This document shows positions 641 to 18,027 of a DNA stretch of 64,000 bases, in pieces. This stretch comes from Mytilus californianus. Lineage: Eukaryota. The notes under the pieces were generated by a model. The model was not told where the DNA came from. It did not search any database and worked only from the letters and a program-made list of their open reading frames with translations. Position 1 is the stretch's first letter, and the number at the start of each line of letters is the position of its first letter. The translations under genes were made by a program, and so were the position numbers. Location: positions 9,486,001 through 9,550,000 of the forward strand of contig NW_026262701.1 in NCBI RefSeq assembly GCF_021869535.1. Reading direction: 5' to 3'.

Positions 641-845
641 TCTTGGTCTGAACCTATCAATCGAGTCGATGAAGCTGCCTATCGTCATGACCTCTATTAT
701 GCTCGACATAAAGATACATCCACCTTATTCCGTGTGTGATATAAATATGCTCTTACAATTAGACACCATCCACCATTCAGCCATGAGAGAGAAAATGAAT
801 CGTGGTATCGTTTAACCTCTCATCGGTACTAAAAGACGATTTGGT
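641..845 (+). pseudogene. Parvovirus VP1u-like phospholipase A2 domain remnant, upstream of and originally continuous with the integrase
   Basis: Hand translation from 641: SWSEPINRVDEAAYRHDLYYARHKD (HDxxY motif, His codon at 686); after one frameshift and a stop it reads into KRRFGLGHKKVLWTDQLAEELHKP of the integrase. Confidence 0.75.
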
Positions 846-1774
846 TTGGGGCATAAAAAAGTTCTTTGGACAGATCAATTAGCAGAAGAATTACATAAAC
901 CCGTTCGACGTCATTTCAAAAAACGACGTGTTATCGCTGGTGTGGATGAAATTTGGACTGCCGATCTCATCGATATGAGTTCATTTTCTCGCGATAACAA
1001 AGGATTTAAATTCATTCTAAGCATCATCGATATGTTTTCCAAATACGGATGGCTCATGCTCCCAAAAACAAGAAAGGGTTGACAGTCAAAGATGCCTTTC
1101 AAGCGGTTTTCACATCATCATCACGACTTCCTAAAAAATTATGGACGAATAAAGGTACCGAATTTCACAACAAAGAAGTAATAGAGTTACTTCGACAGCA
1201 CAACATTGAACTGTACTGTACGAGAATGAAGAAAAATCAAGTTTCGTTGAACGTTGGAACCGTACCATGAAAGAGAAAATGTTTAAATACTTTTCGGCTA
1301 ATTCTACGCGCACTTACATCGATGTGTTGGATGATCTCGTGCATCAGTACAATACATCTAAACATAGATCCATTAAAATGACTCCTATTGCTGCAAGAAC
1401 ACGAAAACAAAGTGTACTGGAACATGTATGGTAACCTTCTTCCATTAAAACAGGTTAAATTTAAAGTAGGGGATACAGTTCGAATCACTTAAACGAAAGG
1501 CGTGTTTGAAAAGGGATACACCCGTAGGTTGACTGAAGAAGTCTTAACGGTGTTACACGTGTTAAACACACAACCTCAAACGTATCGTATCAAGGATTTA
1601 AATGACGAGGAAATAGAAGGTTCCTTCTACGAGCCCAAACTTCAAAAGACGGATCAAGACATGTACCGCATCAAAGAGGTCTTACGAAAACAAACCGAGG
1701 GTGGTGTGAAAGAGGTTACGTTCAACGGAAAGGGTACCTCCCTTAGTCCTTTAATTCTTGGATCAAACAATTAG
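846..1774 (+). pseudogene. INT: Retroviral-type (DDE) c-integrase, frameshifted
   Basis: LAEELHKP, WTADLIDM (D1), IIDMFSKY, LWTNKGTEF (D2 appears mutated to N), VERWNRTMK (E, about 1245-1270), HRSIKMTP, C-terminal FEKGY...GSFYEPKLQK. Confidence 0.92.
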
Positions 1775-2790: not shown

Positions 2791-3190
2791 TTATAGCATC
2801 CAATGGAAAACACGACTTCATCAAAAGGTTGACCTTCCGACAACAATTTCAACACATACAAACAAAAGTGTCCACAGAACACTGTTTCTCTTATTTGAAG
2901 TTCATCGGTGTTTTAGTAGATCTTAGGTTTTAAGTAATTTACCATTTTGTTGGGGGTGGTAATGCATAAGAATCAAAGTACAGTTTGGTGGTTGTATTCT
3001 TAAACCAACACGTCCGAAGTGTTCCCGGTCTCCCTAAGGTATCATGGTTTAAAATACCACACTCTTCATGGTATGGTTGGGAAGGTAGGGTATCACGCAT
3101 GAATACACCTCTGAAATGAGGTATCTTTAGAGTCTTGACCGCTTTCTCCAACTCTCCGTTCGAAAGGGGTGAGTTGGGAAGTAGAATGTT
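2790..3190 (-). pseudogene. PRO: Adenain-like (adenoviral C5 family) cysteine protease, inactivated
   Basis: LPNSPLSNGELEKAVKTLKIPHFRGVFMRD; GTLR in place of GTHW (catalytic His lost); YFDSYALPPP; ELQIRETVFCGHFCLYVL (Gln and catalytic Cys) after a frameshift. Confidence 0.88.
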
Positions 3191-3913
3191 GTGTACTGGT
3201 ATCCTTTGTTTTAAGTCTTCTAGCTTCCAAAGGAGCGGAAAGTTGCAATCGTCTTTCTGAAGCCTCCATCATTTGTTTACATGCGTTGAAGTATTGTCGT
3301 TCTACAGCTGTTGATGTTTTTCAGACATTTCGATATAATAGGTGGGTAAGTCATTCTTTCTTTTACCAACACACGTCTTTAAGGTGATTTTTCAATTTTG
3401 TAATGTCCATGTGCTAGAGTACTAATGCCATTGGGTTAGATGTAACGTTTGTCATCATCAGCTGAGAAAGCTTTCTTACGACACTCAATCGTATGAATTT
3501 GATGCCCACGACTTTTAAACATATTCATGGTTCGATAACTAACTTTGTAAGTATCTAGACATGTCTTGTAGTCGGCAAAGGTAAGTCCATTTTTCTCAGT
3601 ACTCCTTTTCACCCCATTAGCTCTCTTTGATTCGGTGTCACCCATCTTAAAGGCATACAACTTTGCACGTAACCCAACAAATTCAGTCATAATTTCACCT
3701 TTGTTTTCATCCTTAAACATTCCAATAATACCAGGGTTTGATTCCATGCTTATTCCAGATGGATGATCTTTAGGAATTTTAGAGGTGTCAAACCATTGTT
3801 GTCCATGTTCATTAACGTCCTTATAAGCATCAGGTGTTTCTACTTTACAAATGATGCTATCAGTATCGGTGTAACAAATGGTTCCCTTTTCTTTGTAGGT
3901 AGGTTTCAAGTAT

Positions 3914-4786
3914 CTCTAATATCAAAAGAAAACATCCTCTTGGGATCAGATATTATAGATATCTCTGGAAATATTTCACTGTTCTCATGCAGTACTATAT
4001 TTATTCTTGTAGATTGAGCTCACTGTTACCTTGTGTTAAGATTGCACTAAAGAAATTGAAAAATTATTATATTATTGAAAAACTATCTTCCGCCTTTCAC
4101 AGTTCTCCTGCAATAGGTGAAAAAATAGAAAAAACATGGGAACCATTTCAACAATTAATTTTATGATACAAGAAAGATAACTCATATTTAACTGAAAATA
4201 AATGTGTAACACAACTGGATGCACATCACAATTGGACAGTGGTTAGTGTCATCCTATAGATATTATATATATGTATGTAAGAATTAAATGTGTGTTATTA
4301 TGTTATGATAATAGGAGTTAAAATACTGTTTTTTATATGATTTCCAGATATCGCCGGGAAGAAAAAATAACAACAAAATACAAATGTATGTCATTATATA
4401 TATAATTTTCTTTATGAGTACATGTAAATGTACGAATAGAATAACTATGTTGCATCAGTAATAATAATAGTCTTTTAATATCAATTTAATCATATATGAA
4501 TATAAGTTAATGATTTTTTTATCAATTGTTTNNNNNNNNNNNNNNNNNNNNNNNNNNNNNNNNNNNNNNNNNNNNNNNNNNNNNNNNNNNNNNNNNNNNN
4601 NNNNNNNNNNNNNNNNNNNNNNNNNNNNNNNNNNNNNNNNNNNNNNNNNNNNNNNNNNNNNNNNNNNNNNNNNNNNNNNNNNNNNGGGGATGTTAATATA
4701 AGCGCTGACACTGACAGGTCAAAATAAATAAACATGTATTGTATTCTTCTTTGATAAAGAATTACAAAATAAAGAATTATAAAAAA
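3914..4786 (+). mobile_element. 5'-truncated L1/Tx1-type LINE insertion inside pPolB (contains a 154-N assembly gap)
   Basis: 13-bp direct repeat AGGTTTCAAGTAT at 3901-3913 and 4787-4799; AATAAA plus A-tail before the right copy; 3915-4166 reads ...QYYIYSCRLSSLLP...LKNYYIIEK...KTWEPFQQLIL*, resembling an L1/Tx1 ORF2 C-terminus. Confidence 0.8.
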
Positions 4787-5974
4787 AGGTTTCAAGTATT
4801 TGTAAACAAAGTCTGTCATTAAAGTCTTCGATAAATCAAGAATCGAAAATCCTAAATAGATCGGTTTGTCAAATACTGTTTTTGTTTTTCGCATGTGAAA
4901 AGCTGCTAGGTGTTCACTAAAAATAACCCAACGATCAAAGTTTGGTTTAGCGATGACTTTTAGCGCTTGTTTTTCATTGTTTACCAACCGAACATTCACT
5001 CTTCGTCTAATGTTCTCCATTGTCTTGCCAAACATCGAGTTGTTCACGAATCTGAAGAAATCCTTTTCAAAATCCGTCTTGGCATTGGCTCGAATTGCGG
5101 TGTTCAACTCGATGTATTTTTTCAACCATGGTCATTGATTGAACTTAATAACACGGTGAACCTTCTTTAGTTTATGTCCAAGGTCAAGGTATAGTTTTAA
5201 ATTCACATAGTGAATGATGCACTTTTCTTTGTTTCCAAGATTCGGCACTAACTTCTTCACTTTGTTAATAAGTAAGGTTTCGGGTGCTAAGGGGTAATAA
5301 TTATGGTAATCATGAAGTGCTCTTGGATATTCCAAATCTACTTCCAACACGTAACCTTGATCGTCTTCAGCTGTAAGTGTATCCAAAGCTGGCATCTCTT
5401 CAGGTGTAATCCATGTAAACCCATCGGTAGGTAAGAACTTACTCATAGCCCATCCATATAAGTTGTTGGCATCTACATACATCAAGTGACTTGTTGGTTT
5501 GTTGGTATGATACTCTTTCATGTAGGGGTTGTTGGATTTGATATAGCGTTGAGTTGCGACGGTGATTCCTCCCCTAATTCCTTTCTCAAACATCAACAGC
5601 ATGTCTGGGTCAGTAAGAAGGTCAAGCTCATTATTACTAATCTTCAATGCTGCATCATAAGCAAGTCCTGGTGCTGTTAAGTACGAAGCAGGGTCGAGTT
5701 AGTAATTCTTCAAACAAAGATCCCTAAAATTTTCTAACACATCACATAGTAGTAATACATCTGTTTTTAAATACAAATCATGATATGTCCTCATGCTAGT
5801 CATTTTCAAAGTATTCTATACTTTTTGTGCATGTTCATAATCTTCTTTACTCACTTCTTCTTCGTTAAATGTATTGTAAAAATCTTCCCTTGAAGGTAAC
5901 TCTGTTATTTCAAGTTTGTTAAACCAATCCATGTAATCATAAGGATATACCCCTTTTCGTAAAAGCAAATCAAT

Positions 5975-6785
5975 GTTTACAGATGGGGTTGGTTCGTATA
6001 CAAGGGCATTCACTTCAATACCTTCTTCACTTAAATATTCAAAAGCACTCATCAATGCTTCGTTTTCAAAAGGGGTTGTTGATACGGTGTTTACAGGTAT
6101 ATCATAACCTTCATCCATAGGTTTGTTGGTAAATGTAATGTTACATTCCATAACTTCTTTCACTTTTTGTGAACACCCCTTAAGTATTTGTGGAAGGTTT
6201 TCTGGTGGTAAGTTGTCTTTGTAAATCATAAGGCCATCAAACACAAGGTAACCTACTTCAATGTCTTGTTCAATTAATTAATCAAAAGCAATCATCAATG
6301 CTTTGTTTTCTAAACTACACATCACATAATTTACTGTATTTCCATCAATGTTGTAGTTTGTACCTTTGTTATCTTTTGACTGCTTGGCTAAGGCATACAA
6401 TTCTGGTCGTAGTTTAACAAATGAATGCATAATGTGTCTCATTTCACTGTAAAATTCCTTGTACCAACTTGGATCATCAGGTGTTAGTTTCACACGTCTC
6501 CCGTTATAATAGCTAAAACATGTGCCTTAACTTCATCCCGTCTTTCATTAGTTCGTATCATCCAATTTTCCATGTATTGTTCCCTGTTTTCAATGAAATC
6601 ATTAAGCCCATCGCAGTTAATACCATTGTCATGACAATACCATGATAACAATGTGGGATGTGTATTCTTCATGCCAATGTCATACATGTTTACGTTTATC
6701 AATAACTTCACGTAGTTGAATAACTCGATTATTTTTTTAGGTAGATGGGTTAACCTTGTACAATTGAGGATCTAACGGTAGGTCA
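5975..6785 (-). pseudogene. DNA polymerase A-like (TV-Pol-type) domain embedded in the pPolB exonuclease region
   Basis: YDIGMKNTHPTLL (motif A-like, 6655-6684), VKAHVLAIITG (motif B-like), LVFDGLMI (motif C-like, 6233-6247); ORF 5816-6244 runs without a break from FDGLMI into LLRKGVYPYDY of pPolB. Confidence 0.7.
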
Positions 6786-8753
6786 CCAAACACTTTTTCC
6801 ATATTTTTAAAACCTCCACGAGGGGTTGCTTTCACTAATTTTTCTAAACTTGTACTCATAAATTTAAAGCCTCTACAAATCTCAAATGTTGGTACAGTGG
6901 TTTCTTTTCACCATCCTTCTTTGATGAGTATTTACCTACTTGAATTCTTTTGGTAAATGAAATGTATTTCTCATCGGTATTTGGAATACATGTAATTGGT
7001 CCTGCTGTTTCACCAAAATGTTTAATGAACAGATGACTGTCATACCCAGCTAAATTATGAAAAATCACAGGTATGAACTTGGGTACCCTATTTTTCAAGT
7101 TAAACTCGTTGTGTGCTGCAACCCTGTAATTACCAGTGAAGTGACAGTGATCTCTAACCTTGTCATCCCCCAATGCATTATTACAAAACCAACATAGTGT
7201 TGCAGTTTTGAAATCACTCTTGTCTTCCATTGTCATCACCATTGGTTTTCTAAAGTCATTCTGGGTGTAAATGGCTTTGATTTCTTTTTCAAGTCCTTCA
7301 ACAAAAATCTGCGTTACATCTTTTCCTTCTTCTTGCATGGTGGTCTGTACTGGTTTTTTGGTAAAAACACTTTCACCAAAACGTTTTATGAAATAAGAAA
7401 AACTAGAGGGTATATGCTTTTTGTAGGGTTTGGTGTGTGGTTTGTATGCGATTGTGTCCTCTGGTTCGGATTCTACTTTTTCAGTAAGCATTCAAAATCT
7501 GCAAAAACCTCAAATGGAACTCTTATTGAATTAGAGTGGTTTTCAAAACTATGGTAGGATCCTTTACCAGACATCTCTGTCTTAATTGCTTTGTGGTTTA
7601 CACAATACTCTTTATGTTTCTTCAATGCCTCTTCGCTGGGACGGTGGTTTGAACATCTGAGCATGAATGAATCTCACCGCCATGGTGCGTTTTCTTGTTT
7701 GAAATTAGCCGGGAATAGTGTTTTCGTCCATCACTTTCTATCATCAACAAGTTAATCATTTTACTTATCTGTTCAGCAACATCTGAAATTCGTAGATGGT
7801 ATATCTCTTTGTCATCAATTCCATATACATTGACTGCCAAGGTAGGGTTGATTTTTTCAAACTTGTTAATATACTTAAGGCTTACGGGAATTCTAATCCA
7901 TGCAGGTTTAGTTTATTGTTCCACCTACAATACTGAGTCCACCTTCGTGTTTTCCTTTGGTCTACCTCTTTGTGATGTACGGCTGAAAGTACACCCCATT
8001 TAAAACACATATCATCTTTGTTTTTGAACATTTATCACGGCTTTCTTGTCTTTGATCCATTTTGGTAAAGCTACATACTGCAAACCGGATAACGGTGTGT
8101 ATTTGTTGATGTTAAGTTGCAATTTCACGATTTCATTCAATGTCCACCCACTCTTCTCAGAGGTACACTCGGCAGTTTTTTCTCCGATCTTTTGGTCCAT
8201 CTCTTTCAAAGTTTCAATGAAGGCGATGGCTTCTGTTATAGTTTGATTTCCCGATTTAAAGTGTCCCTCATTTTCATCGTCCTCTTTACCTGTGGGGTTG
8301 ATTTTCACGAAAGTACAGTGTAACACCACATTAATGTTAACCCCTTTCAATCCACAATTTCGAATGATGTTCATCCTTTTCCCTCGTGTTACCTCAAGAA
8401 AGGTCTGGATGTCAATTTCAGCATCCGATGTCATTTTCCAGGTACTCAATACACCTTTTATGGATCTAATGGACTCTTTCTTGATTTTTTTTACCTACCT
8501 TTTTAACTTTAAGTTGATTTTTAGGTAACCTACTAATACCTTTCAACCCATGTTGTTTCGCCTTGATCATGATTTCTTTTTTCGTCGCTGGTTTAGGAAT
8601 ACGCTTATGTATGTTCCGTCTCCGTTTCAATCAACTCTAGTAACTGTTCTTTCTTCATTCTAGAGTATCATTTAAGACCAGCATGTTTAGCCATACTTCT
8701 TAACTGTTTTAACGTTTCAACAACAATCGTATTCATTTTTACTTACTATACCC

Positions 8754-13300: not shown

Positions 13301-14086
13301 TTTAATTGTAATTCTTCGTCAATAAAAATAAATAAATTAATACTTAATGGCAATTAAGCTGCGAAGATTTAAAGTATATGACAACCAATAACATTGGTGA
13401 GTACACACAAGATTCGCATTCCGATCTAATAATTCAGTGAATCTCGAAGCCAAAATATTCAGGATCCCAAAACAATAGACAAAGGGTGCAGAATTGAAAC
13501 CACCGAAAAGACGACAAAGTTATAACGAGTAAAATGATTGAACTCTTCCAGTTACACGATTTAATCAAATGCAGATTAATGTTAGTAAAATTTAATATGG
13601 AATTATTTACATTTTTTAAGTTAACTTTTAAAAGAATTCCCGCAATCGGTGTCTTTAAGACGTTTGATATTCATGTATTTAATGGTTTGTCAACAGTGTC
13701 AGATTCCCTACTGTATATGTGCAATATGACGGTGAAACAAGGCGATTCCCCTCAAAATATTATCTCGAATCCATGTGCGAGAAACAACAAAATACCTCCC
13801 TCTGTTGATAACTCTGTTTTGCTGACCATTAGGAAATACAAAAGGATTTGATTTAATTACTTGACAGAATAGAAATCAACATTGTATATACATGTATATT
13901 TAAACAGTCATACTTGCAAATATGTTTTTTATTTGTTAGCAATCACATTGTAAAGACGCCCTCCAACAATAATAAATAAGTCCCGCTGCTCTCCTTCCAG
14001 TGCGAAGAAAACTGCGAACGATTCTTGCACTGCGTAACCATACAGATACATATACAGAAGTGGTTACACGCAGATAATACGACATT

Positions 14087-15492
14087 ATGGGTTTGTGTTC
14101 GTTTCAAACATGCCGATTCCGTGTTACAGTTCTACTGTGTATACTATTTATTCATCAGGTGATGACTGAAAACACAAACAAGATCCAATCAGCAAATAAA
14201 TCACCTCAACTGTCAGGTTATGTACTGAATAATATTTCTTTTTCTATCTTACAACCATGGCAACAGTTTTGTTATATAAATGAGTTACCAAAACAAGACA
14301 AACCCGGTGAATACTATATTGAGATTATCTGTAATGTCAACAGCAATGTTTTAAACTTTCTTGATTTTCGTCGCTTCACATCAAGAATTCAAGAAAATAT
14401 TTTATTTTCCGTTGTAATAACGTGTGGCCATAATGGAAGCGTTTTCTTTCCATACCCTGGCAGAGCACGTCTCCTCCATTCATTACGAATCTCAAATTGT
14501 GTTTTGAATGGATTTACATCCGAAGCAACATCTGATGTCATTGATTCAATACCGGATCGCATGAAATATTTCACTTTAATCAATTCAGTGATATTTTTGT
14601 CTCAAAATGATTTTAGACAGTTTCAGAGAGCAAAACATTTGACTAAAGCTTTTCAATGCGGTAATGTAAACGCTGTAAAAATAATTGAATACAACATTTC
14701 TTGCTGGATTGGTAATGCGAGTAAACGTGCGAGATTAGAAACCTATCAAACGCGACCTGATTTCCATGACCGCACCTGCACCTATAAATATCTTCGACAT
14801 TTGCAGAAAAGTTTTTCAATAATACAACCGTTTACTCGGCAGATTGATAAATCTATGTATCCTAATATTGAAATGCTCAACTTTAGTGCAGCCAGTATAA
14901 TAGAAACACCAAAACATGTTCAGGATTGGAGACTAGAATCAAAAGATTTGAAATATTTAGATCTCAGTCACAACTTAATAGAAGATGTGTTTCCTATAAT
15001 TTGTTATGATAGATACAACGATGATTCAACTGAAGGATTTGTAGATTTACGTTATAATAACATATCATCTCTCAGACTACATGGAGTAACGAGATGGTTT
15101 AGTGAAATTTGTGATAACCTAACGGTTGATATTCGAAATAATCCATTTTTGTGTGATTGTGGCGTAAAGCATTTTAAAGACCTTTTACAAAAATACGTTG
15201 GAAATCATATAGCATCTTCTTCTTGGTATATGCTTAGGCGAAAACAGATTTTTTCTCGTTATAAATATCTGTATGATCTTACATGCTACAATCCGCCTTC
15301 ACTGCGTGGGAGAATAATTTCTAAACTATCACTAAGTGAAATCGGGTGCAAGCCCAAATTACGAATAGTAACAAATGTTCCGACAGGGCCAATTATAGTA
15401 GTGATGTTTGTTAGTTTTTTTCTTTCTGTATGTCTTTTTGTTGGTATCAGATATCGAGAACAAATAGCTGTTAGCTGTAGTATGTGGCTAAA
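14087..15492 (+). CDS. TLR-ectodomain-like LRR transmembrane receptor without TIR (gene 1), main exon
   Basis: Open 469-codon ORF: signal peptide, Cys-containing N-region, LRRs (LKYLDLSHNLI, VDLRYNNI), LRRCT NPFLCDC...C, TM PIIVVMFVSFFLSVCLFVGI, then RYRE; the apparent stop lies inside a GTAAGT donor at 15493. Confidence 0.9.
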
Positions 15493-15612
15493 GTAAGTTC
15501 TAACTGTCGATCATAATATAATTACACGGTTGCTAAGAATACAAATGTGAATGAAATTAATTGAACTGATCAGACTTATGATCTTCTAATGGTTGGATTC
15601 CACAGCTTTTAA

Positions 15613-17133
15613 TCTTATATCACTATCACAGCAGTTACTGTAATGATAAACACATCGACATTCATTCTTTTCACTATCACAGCAGTTACTGTAATGATAA
15701 ACACATCGACATTCATTGTTTTCACTATCACAGCAGTTACTGTAATAATAAACACATCGACGTTCATTGGTTTCACTATCACAGCAGTTAAAGTAATAAT
15801 AAACACATCGACGTTCATTGTTTTCACTATCACTGCAGTTACTGTAATAATAAACACATCGACATTCACTATTTTCACTATCACAGCAGTTACTGTAATA
15901 CTAAACACAACGACATTCATTGTTTTCACTATCACAGCAGTTACTGTAGTAATAAACACATCGACATTCATTGTTTTCACTATCACAGCAATTACTGTAA
16001 TAATAAACACATCGACGTTCATTGTTTTCACTATCACAGCAGTTACTGTAATAATAAACACATCGACGTTCATTGTTTTCACTATCACAGCAGTTAAAGT
16101 AATAATAAACACATCGACGTTCACTGTTTTCACTATCACAGCAGTTACTTTAATACTTAACATATCGACATTCACTGTTTTCACTATCAGAGCAGTTACT
16201 GTAATAATAAACACATCGACGTTCATTGTTTTCACTATCACAGCAGTTACTGTAATAATAAACACATCGAAATTCACTGTTGTCACTATCACAACAGTTA
16301 AGTAATAATAAACACATTGACATTCACTATTTTCACTATCACAGCAGTTACTGTAATAATAAACACATCGATATTCATTGTTTTCACTATCACAGCAGTT
16401 ACTGTAATAATAAACACATCGACATTCATTGTTTTCACTATCACAGCAATTACTGTAATAATAAACACGTCGACGTTCATTGTTTTCACTATCACAGCAG
16501 TTACTGTAATAATAAACACGTCGACGTTCATTGTTTTCACTATCACAGCAGTTAAAAAAATAATAAACACATCGACATTCATTGTTTTCACTATCACAGC
16601 AGTTACTTTAATAATTAACACATCGACATTCACTGTTTTCACTATCACAGCAGTTACTGTAATAATAAACACATCGACATTCATTGTTTTCACTATCACA
16701 GCAGTTACTGTAATAATAAACACATCGACATTCACTGTTTTCACTATCGCAGCAGTTACTGTAATAATAAACACATTGACATTCATTGTTTTCACTATCA
16801 CAAACACATCGACATTCATTGTTTTCACTATCATAGCAGTTACTGTAATAATAAACACATCGACATTCATTGTTTTCACTATCGAAGCAGTTACTGTAAT
16901 AATATACACATCGCCATTCATTGTTTTCACTATCACAGCAGTTACTGTAATAATAAACACATCGACATTCACTGTTTTTACTGTCACAGCAGTTACTGTA
17001 ATAATGAACACATCGACATTCACTGTTTTCACTATCACAGCAGTTACTGTATAATAAACACATCGACATTCATTGTTTTTACTATCACAGCAATTACTGT
17101 AATAATAAACACATCGACATTCATTGTTTTCAC
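15613..17133. repeat. 51-bp minisatellite, about 30 copies, in the predicted intron of gene 1
   Basis: Unit CACTATCACAGCAGTTACTGTAATAATAAACACATCGACATTCATTGTTTT. Confidence 0.97.
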
Positions 17134-18027
17134 CGAATAGTCGATCTTATATGTATACCACATAGCCAACAATGGCATGTCTTACCTAGTTTTGAATGCA
17201 TTTGTTATCTCTGGTACAATCATTTATTTTACAAAGACAAATACATTATCGAAACCCTGTACTCATGTGTCCCTGGGCTATATATTACACATATAACACA
17301 ATCCACATCACAGCTATCATGCATGATTACAAAAATGTAACTCGAAATGCGTGCTTTGAACGAGTTGTAATTTCTTTTTTTGTTTTTTTTTTGTGATTTT
17401 TTATGTTATCTAAAAAAAAACTCCAAGCATTGAGATACATAGATATAAACATTATATATAATATAAGTATTAATATGAAATTTTGTTCGATAGCTGTCTA
17501 AAGCTAAAATGTTTACATTTCTTTGTTAATAACAATATAAAAATAAAGAGATGTGGTATGATTGCCAATGAGACAACTATTCATTGAAGTTCAAATGAAG
17601 TGGATGTAAGCAATTATTGGCAACCGTACGACCTTCAAAAATGAGAAAAACCCATACCGTGTTTTCGAATATAAAAGGCCCCGACATGAAACATATGAAA
17701 CAATTCAATTGAAAAAACTAACAGCCTAATTTATAAAAAAAATCATTTACGAAAAACAAATGTGACAGACATGAACCAACGACAACAACTGAACTACAGG
17801 CTCCTGATCTTGAGACAGGCACATAAAGAATGTAGCGTGGTTAAACATGTGTGTGTGCGCTCAACCCTCCGCAACCAAGATTGCTCCGCTGTAGCGAAAT
17901 GTCTCCTAGCTGCCGCTGTGTAAGTGAGGGAAGACATGTACAGTATATATAGAGTTGTATAACAGTAACATAAATTATATTATAAAATGTATTTAGGGCT
18001 TTTGTATTTGTTGTTGTTATTCAATAG

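Follow-up and report, generated by a model that had tools for sequence, protein, structure and literature searches.

In a group of Polinton/Maverick elements of marine animals, seen here in the mussel Mytilus californianus, the family-B DNA polymerase that is primed by protein (pPolB) contains a second polymerase domain, a TV-Pol of family A, fused in frame between the Exo II and Exo III motifs of its exonuclease domain. This fusion was confirmed, and none of the outcomes by which the sequence-only reading of this DNA had said that its proposal would fail was encountered as far as the tests reached, because the insert has the fold and motifs of a TV-Pol, occupies a site between Exo II and Exo III and is part of unbroken natural ORFs. 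The resulting two-polymerase architecture, drawn from two known families, is apparently undescribed: as had been supposed, no earlier description was found in the literature searched.

A decayed copy of the fusion gene in Mytilus californianus

The window, by which we mean the entire 64-kb stretch of DNA analysed, holds one copy of the fusion gene together with remnants of the surrounding element (Table 1). This copy is a pseudogene. Its insert lacks about 80 codons at 6688/6689, a gap that takes out the conserved β-hairpin arginine, and its frame is shifted near 6500 and stopped at 6278-6280; both metal-binding palm aspartates of the TV-Pol are still present. The host gene has further frameshifts and stops, and about 870 unrelated or N bases split its C-terminal part from the remainder.

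The motifs from which the fusion had originally been recognized were all found on the minus strand between 5939 and 6847, and the C-terminal junction is a single open frame, as claimed, with an extent of 5816-6277. The insert had been estimated at about 270 codons, which is too short because of the deletion in the window copy; the real insert comprises about 320-380 codons. A reported second copy of the helix preceding motif C is indeed present, 6000-6071 directly repeating 6243-6314 over 72 nt at 81% identity, but the linker that contains it is limited to the subfamily of the window copy: a degenerate counterpart occurs in L016/P0003 and P0050, and the other subfamilies lack it.

Table 1. Features of the decayed Polinton, in window coordinates
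Feature	Position	Strand	Remark
Decayed Polinton pPolB gene	3394-8464	-	beside protease-like and integrase remnants
pPolB N-terminal part	6785..8464	-	several frameshifts
pPolB Exo I	7488-7505	-	
pPolB endonuclease VII-like domain	near 7132-7155	-	PF02945 match on relatives
pPolB Exo II	7027-7044	-	
SLEKLV/FxDS helix (LEKLVKATP), host side	6821-6847	-	
TV-Pol insert with linkers, decayed	5972..6784	-	motifs; tblastn against unbroken relative, 63-75% identity
Insert start	6758-6784	-	
Internal deletion point, about 80 codons	6688..6689	-	this copy only; query residues 31-111 unmatched
TV-Pol motif A region	6655..6684	-	YDIGMKNTHP here, DID[MI]KNAHP in relatives
Fingers helix with conserved Asp and RxxxK	6499..6540	-	frameshift at helix end
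TV-Pol motif C, LVFDGLMI	6224..6247	-	
Partial duplicate of pre-motif-C helix, in C-terminal linker	6000..6071	-	copy of 6243-6314, 81%
DLLLRKGVYPY, host side after insert	5939-5971	-	
pPolB middle part, KGVYPY motif and motif B region	4781..5971	-	in-frame stops
pPolB Exo III	5759-5782	-	
pPolB Pol motif A	5456-5473	-	
pPolB C-terminal part with motif C (3856-3870)	3394..3912	-	
Putative cysteine protease, Polinton gene after pPolB	2841..3268	-	motif reading; no Pfam match on unbroken relative
Decayed rve integrase, same Polinton	642..1774	+	PF00665 on unbroken relative

Unbroken fusions in the genome and in public data

Searches of the same genome gave at least 47 DNA and at least 130 protein matches, which are lower bounds and not copy numbers; 30 loci were read, and intact relatives with the insert at the same point were found. 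The frame of one (L016) is unbroken for at least 1191 codons across the exonuclease, insert and palm, and that of another (L021) for 1084. The L016 ORF encodes 1477 aa, stopping just past motif C, and lies in a 14.5-kb Polinton with 750-bp TIRs that are 98.9% identical. A further unbroken fusion ORF of 1673 aa (G000:C24:45571802-45576823) belongs to a 14.7-kb element with 165-bp TIRs of 100% identity and with capsid, integrase and ATPase genes, and four more elements carry TIRs at 95.5-97.7%. Besides the TIRs, hallmarks of Polinton/Maverick elements were recovered by profile (DJR capsid, PF21738, E 4e-47; rve integrase, PF00665, E 4e-9; A32 ATPase, PF04665, weakly and on a partial ORF), the protease of the complete elements was assigned by motif reading, and no helicase ORF was recognized in the complete 14.5-kb and 14.7-kb elements.

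Identical junctions were seen in public proteins of 1433-1644 aa, those of 1538-1644 aa counting among the unbroken fusions, some of whose cluster members are named Mytilus proteins, and three metagenome contigs (L166, L183 and L188) carry the fusion at this main site. An independent run yielded the unbroken copy in one 5.5-kb contig with 4 differences (X16), possibly from the same material. Within the one genome, the FxDS and LLRKGVYPY motifs are 36 residues apart in pPolBs without the insert and 355-360 in those bearing it, and therefore the wide gap between them is no chance spacing. The unbroken ORFs and the insertion site shared by genome copies, public proteins and metagenome contigs bear out the earlier view that this is a real domain fusion rather than a one-off event.

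With regard to splicing, a raw RNA run sampled to about 6% contained 0 reads of the gene, a coverage too thin for a test, and the contigs from two further runs, of RNA or possibly RNA, gave short matches of 90-95% with no joint removing the insert, which is uninformative. No GT-AG ends at the insert junctions are conserved across subfamilies.

The insert is a reduced family-A polymerase

The assignment of the insert as a TV-Pol/PolA-like domain is supported by both fold and motifs. Its AlphaFold model, built from a 50-row alignment, has a pLDDT of 94.8. A Foldseek search of BFVD with this model placed the Zamilon replication protein best (E 7.6e-20, TMq 0.76), followed by viral proteins of 700-1275 aa; the matches include an origin-binding-domain protein of Pyramimonas orientalis virus and the helicase/primase/polymerase of Qinghai Lake virophage. 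Against the PDB all 50 best matches were family-A polymerases with Klenow at the top, and a structure search independent of Foldseek (VIA) likewise aligned Klenow over 277 residues (Z 15.9, rmsd 4.1). Thus the match to PolA and TV-Pol that had been anticipated was obtained by structure, with the Zamilon TVpol and Klenow covering nearly the whole length of the insert in a reduced family-A fold of thumb, hairpin, palm and fingers. Sequence searches of Pfam, PHROGs and the PDB gave no match to the insert; in the ESM Atlas the nearest Pfam cluster is PF00476 at 0.82, which serves as a lead only.

The hallmarks of TV-Pols, in the relevant passages of Iyer, Abhiman and Aravind (2008, PMC2579912), are a hairpin arginine, two palm aspartates and a fingers aspartate with RxxxK. 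Across 33 long fusion proteins, a set that includes near-copies and one ORF counted twice, the hairpin arginine, the motif A aspartate and the motif C aspartate are each present in 33/33 and the RxxxK with the fingers aspartate in 32/33; K165 is invariant in the 50-row alignment. The host motifs are present in the same 33, save for truncated proteins or misses of the pattern window.

An intein or homing-endonuclease insertion was considered and rejected, for the fold of the insert is that of a polymerase and it has neither splicing residues nor a nuclease domain. The splicing residues of inteins are a Cys/Ser start and a His-Asn end, and the junctions of nine proteins share no such ends. No TSD signal was found at the junctions compared, in line with the initial impression.

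A predicted protein with two active sites, under purifying selection

We modelled residues 560-1723 of an unbroken fusion ORF, leaving out the N-terminal 560, and obtained a pLDDT of 85.5 and a pTM of 0.71. Both polymerases are confidently modelled, with low values confined to linkers and two loops, and the single chain matches both phi29 polymerase (E 7e-13) and KlenTaq/Klenow, a check that the sequence-only reading had called for. The Exo I-III and Pol A-C motifs and the phi29-like fold identify the host part as a Polinton/Maverick pPolB. The model predicts a separately folded TV-Pol domain on flexible linkers, and hence one protein with two polymerase active sites, both of which, we infer, would be active.

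Selection was gauged by pairwise Nei-Gojobori comparisons of natural unbroken frames in subfamily B. For the insert, dN/dS is 0.095-0.12 between L013/14/15 and L021/22 (dS 0.28-0.30) and 0.12-0.21 for pairs with L018; the C-terminal part of the host gives 0.05-0.075 between the subgroups of this subfamily. Near-identical copies show values of 0.4-1.1, as expected of decay after insertion. The insert, at a dN/dS of about 0.1, is thus under purifying selection, and the proposed comparison of insert and host (0.095-0.12 versus 0.05-0.075) finds low ratios in both.

Probable origin, patchy distribution, probable transfer and loss

The TV-Pol family to which the insert belongs is large (7323 representatives). 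Outside pPolBs, its nearest relatives are the N-terminal domains of UL9-like (PF02399) helicase fusions of 1000-1150 aa, at 39-49% identity, compared with about 30% for fusions to D5-type helicases. Marine TVpol-UL9-like helicase proteins are likely donors. Two of the UL9-type fusion genes lie on small contigs that also carry GIY-YIG genes and genes resembling tyrosine recombinases or telomere resolvases; no capsid profile matched on these contigs, which may nevertheless represent Polinton-like viruses. Proteins joining a TVpol to a herpes UL9-like SF2 helicase form a sizeable marine group (P0018-P0032; L167:6257-9529, L181:3814-7017), and one protein (P0296) is a TVpol-NUDIX-UL9-like helicase fusion.

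In a quick TV-Pol tree of 76 rows the main-site inserts form one clade amid the UL9-type fusions, and this clade has a support of 81/83 in a more careful tree of 23 rows. The number of independent captures is approximate because deep support in the quick tree is weak. Host trees built from either flank or both place the insert-bearing pPolBs at 4-6 separate positions among insert-less ones, and their monophyly is rejected (p 1.5e-5). In the two-flank tree, of 47 rows with four omitted for short N-termini and with insert-less rows picked near the queries, they fall into four host clades, so that a single gain needs 8-9 losses as against four changes.

The disagreement between insert and host is clearest for subfamilies A and B, whose inserts are 79% identical and whose flanks are 53/64% identical; the flanks of B are 89/92% identical to those of an insert-less copy (L083). 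The synonymous-site difference between A and B is likewise lower in the insert (0.58-0.69) than in the host (0.78-0.85), and their grouping has a support of 100/96 on the insert tree, whereas the host tree built from both flanks rejects it (p 2.4e-6). Two of the four topology tests were non-significant: A+C was not rejected on the insert tree (p 0.075), nor A+B when the C-terminal host region was used by itself (p 0.062). Owing to these conflicts in identity, synonymous sites and trees, we interpret the data as one or more lateral transfers into the same site; the phylogenetic comparison recommended at the outset thus shows the insert of one subfamily in conflict with the host tree. Such spread may have come about by recombination between co-resident Polintons. 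A 3-base ATG common to both junctions of subfamily B and to the empty allele is lacking in the other subfamilies, and could be due to chance.

The TV-Pol domain is optional, as most pPolBs are without it and one copy has lost it. The latter, in subfamily B (L089; G000:C93:5651133-5651537), retains the last 13 codons of the insert as an in-frame scar, which marks it by its sequence as a secondary loss. The insert was present in 0/110 of the close pPolB relatives scored (119 listed), and in this genome the unbroken insert-less pPolB family outnumbers the insert-bearing one. A scan of IMG/VR with the single insert sequence gave no match; an alignment scan did, with no pPolB fusion among the loci by the classification used.

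Several further observations concern pPolB genes of this kind. A large young family of insert-less Polintons in the same genome has near-identical pPolB frames of 1400-1450 codons (L069-L081). Paired inverted matches to the start of the insert, at first sight a separate small element, proved to be old decayed fragments of insert-bearing pPolBs; two inverted decayed pPolB fragments and a tandem repeat of about 168 bp make up a block amplified on many contigs at 87-98% identity (L090-L096). In one pPolB lineage (P0007, P0427, L166, L188), members with the TV-Pol and members lacking it have a small Cys-rich segment, similar to a zinc finger, inserted just upstream of the TV-Pol site. The loop looks like an insertion hot spot.

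TV-Pol domains at other replicase sites

A TV-Pol with both aspartates is found in frame at five other sites in pPolB or Tlr1-type replicases, making six in total. These lie (a) between a VSR-like nuclease and Exo I in a different type of pPolB (P0033); (b) about 25 residues past motif C of a P0033-type pPolB (P0091, P0056, P0107 and fragments), for which P0033 itself is the empty allele, accurate to three residues; (c) in P0251, a pPolB with PF03175, within its VSR-like domain; (d) in the Tlr1-like P0268, following motif A; and (e) within the SF1 helicase of a second Tlr1-like protein, P0286. Four of these fusions are represented by one database protein each (P0033, P0251, P0268, P0286), and the VSR and Tlr1 labels, assigned by motif reading, are presumptive. 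In the quick tree the TV-Pol of site (b) is sister to the main clade, at 55% identity, and those of the other sites branch apart. Ahead of the TV-Pol of P0251, inside the VSR-like domain, residues ~815-850 form what we take to be a GRF-like zinc finger.

Comparison with known systems

The insert shares the minimal family-A core of the TV-Pol family and of the Sputnik and Zamilon TVpol-S3H proteins (PMC2579912, in part). Known TV-Pols are free-standing or N-terminal to a helicase, and in the passages of that paper they are free-standing or linked to D5-like helicases, never fused to nuclease domains. The insert breaks this rule of context by being nested in the 3'-5' exonuclease domain of another polymerase, a feature that is contextual and not catalytic. 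pPolBs with in-frame HNH and VSR inserts have been reported (Jeong et al. 2023, 10.1101/2023.08.22.554363; Krupovic et al. 2024, PMC11161782, both in part); they involve the same host protein and type of element, and the fusion described here likewise has an endonuclease VII-like domain, but those inserts are endonucleases whereas the Mytilus fusion carries a second polymerase, of another family. A polymerase can thus behave as the endonuclease inserts of pPolBs do. The Tlr1-like pPolB-S1H proteins and the OmPLV SF1-pPolB (PMC12721341) likewise place a second replication enzyme in one chain, but by terminal fusion of a helicase rather than internal insertion of a polymerase.

In the Polisuviricotina, text from a preprint (10.64898/2026.10.13.758929) describes swapping of PolA and AEP domains, PolA-SF2/SF3 proteins and genomes with two replicase genes. 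The likeness lies in the exchange of PolA domains between replicases, for which mobility is proposed there; however, those PolA domains are N-terminal to helicases, the second replicases are separate genes, and the text mentions no PolA inside a pPolB. The CCPol-MP system of SCCmec, from passages of PMC7581432, resembles the insert in having a family-A polymerase without exonuclease, classed as a TV-Pol and shown to prime, but it is bacterial, depends on a separate partner, has no B-family fusion, and is likened here by description and not by a sequence match. We found no literature description of a PolA or TV-Pol inside a pPolB, in searches of article text (figures, supplements, most subscription papers and Repbase being outside their scope), and the passages of PMC8502044, PMC11131425, PMC13215967 and 10.64898/2026.06.19.733378 likewise contain none.

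Family-A and family-B polymerases are usually alternatives in Polintons, virophages and their relatives, and here they are joined in one polypeptide, with both sites conserved, in young animal Polintons. Replicase swaps have been inferred for this group of viruses, and the fusion is a direct intermediate for them. It also allows the long-standing prediction that virophage-type TV-Pols are primases to be tested on a TV-Pol that is compact, well predicted and associated with eukaryotes, and a natural polymerase that displaces strands and has a priming domain tethered to it would be of interest to DNA-amplification work.

Proposed role and alternatives

We propose, with a probability of about 0.5, that the fusion is a two-polymerase replication protein, in which the captured TV-Pol would likely act as a tethered auxiliary primase or primer-extender that restarts synthesis. 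The donor of the domain was probably a TVpol-helicase gene carried by a Polinton-like virus. Replication of the phi29/adenovirus type is initiated by protein priming at the ends alone, with displacement of the other strand, and so a tethered domain permitting internal restart would be useful: a primer-making or primer-extending partner could let pPolB resume on displaced single strands or after stalls. The donor-type position N-terminal to a helicase is the usual position of a primase (PMC2579912, in part). In passages of PMC7581432, CCPol, there called the only characterised TV-Pol member, primes de novo with its partner, the primers being extended by another polymerase; without the partner it performs only primer extension (also 10.1101/2022.12.02.518924, in part). 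Against a priming role, CCPol is a distant member that primes only with MP, no counterpart of which was found here, and the insert has lost its helicase. Any benefit would be small or conditional, because insert-less pPolBs are the majority and form the more numerous unbroken family.

A selfish origin is the main rival, credible though weaker: where replicase genes are broken, perhaps by neighbouring endonucleases, the TV-Pol would copy in the sequence that encodes it, survive at tolerated in-frame loops and be kept intact by its own spread, as homing endonucleases are. This would account for six different in-frame sites, four of them with separately placed TV-Pol lineages, for the sharing of the main site by four host clades, and for the A/B conflict in identity and on the host tree. 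Endonuclease VII, VSR or GIY-YIG domains do occur within the same proteins, and autonomous mobility of whole PolA/AEP replicase genes is proposed in text of the 2026 preprint (10.64898/2026.10.13.758929). The insert, however, has no nuclease, intein ends or conserved splice or TSD signal; endonuclease VII is not allele-specific, because insert-less alleles have it too; no free-standing copy occurs among the genome loci read, which are part of the at least 130 matches; and dN/dS is low also within subfamily B, where descent looks vertical. An active auxiliary polymerase for translesion bypass, or for filling gaps during integration and excision, with no de novo priming, is rather unlikely. The rve integrase encoded by these elements leaves gaps that need filling, and the insert itself lacks a proofreading domain, but host repair serves insert-less Polintons for such gaps and the donor-type proteins are polymerase-helicase replicases, not repair enzymes; that CCPol alone merely extends primers (PMC7581432, in part) would fit this role as well. 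We give very little credence to a one-off rearrangement, an assembly artefact or a tolerated non-functional passenger or relic. The decay of the window copy and the four single-protein fusions at other sites would suit it, but many copies in the genome share the junction with named Mytilus proteins and with metagenome assemblies made independently, the contig of the independent run (possibly the same material) agrees but for 4 differences, and dN/dS is about 0.1 with invariant catalytic residues, so that for the main site the artefact reading is largely refuted. Auxiliary priming or restart, the reading that we prefer, and selfish mobility are not mutually exclusive. Tentatively, and with the balance tilted against it, the TV-Pol might be a self-propagating, active in-frame polymerase passenger of at least six sites in pPolB and Tlr1-type genes, which homes from one Polinton lineage to another with neither a nuclease of its own nor protein splicing and whose hosts, as two-polymerase enzymes of a single chain, combine protein priming with internal repriming.

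Elsewhere in the window

On the plus strand at 14078-15496 lies a 472-codon ORF whose start resembles a signal peptide and which has motifs like those of leucine-rich repeats and a hydrophobic C-terminal stretch; on reading, it would be a Toll-like receptor-like host gene. A long tandem repeat that is open in several frames occupies 15586-17340.
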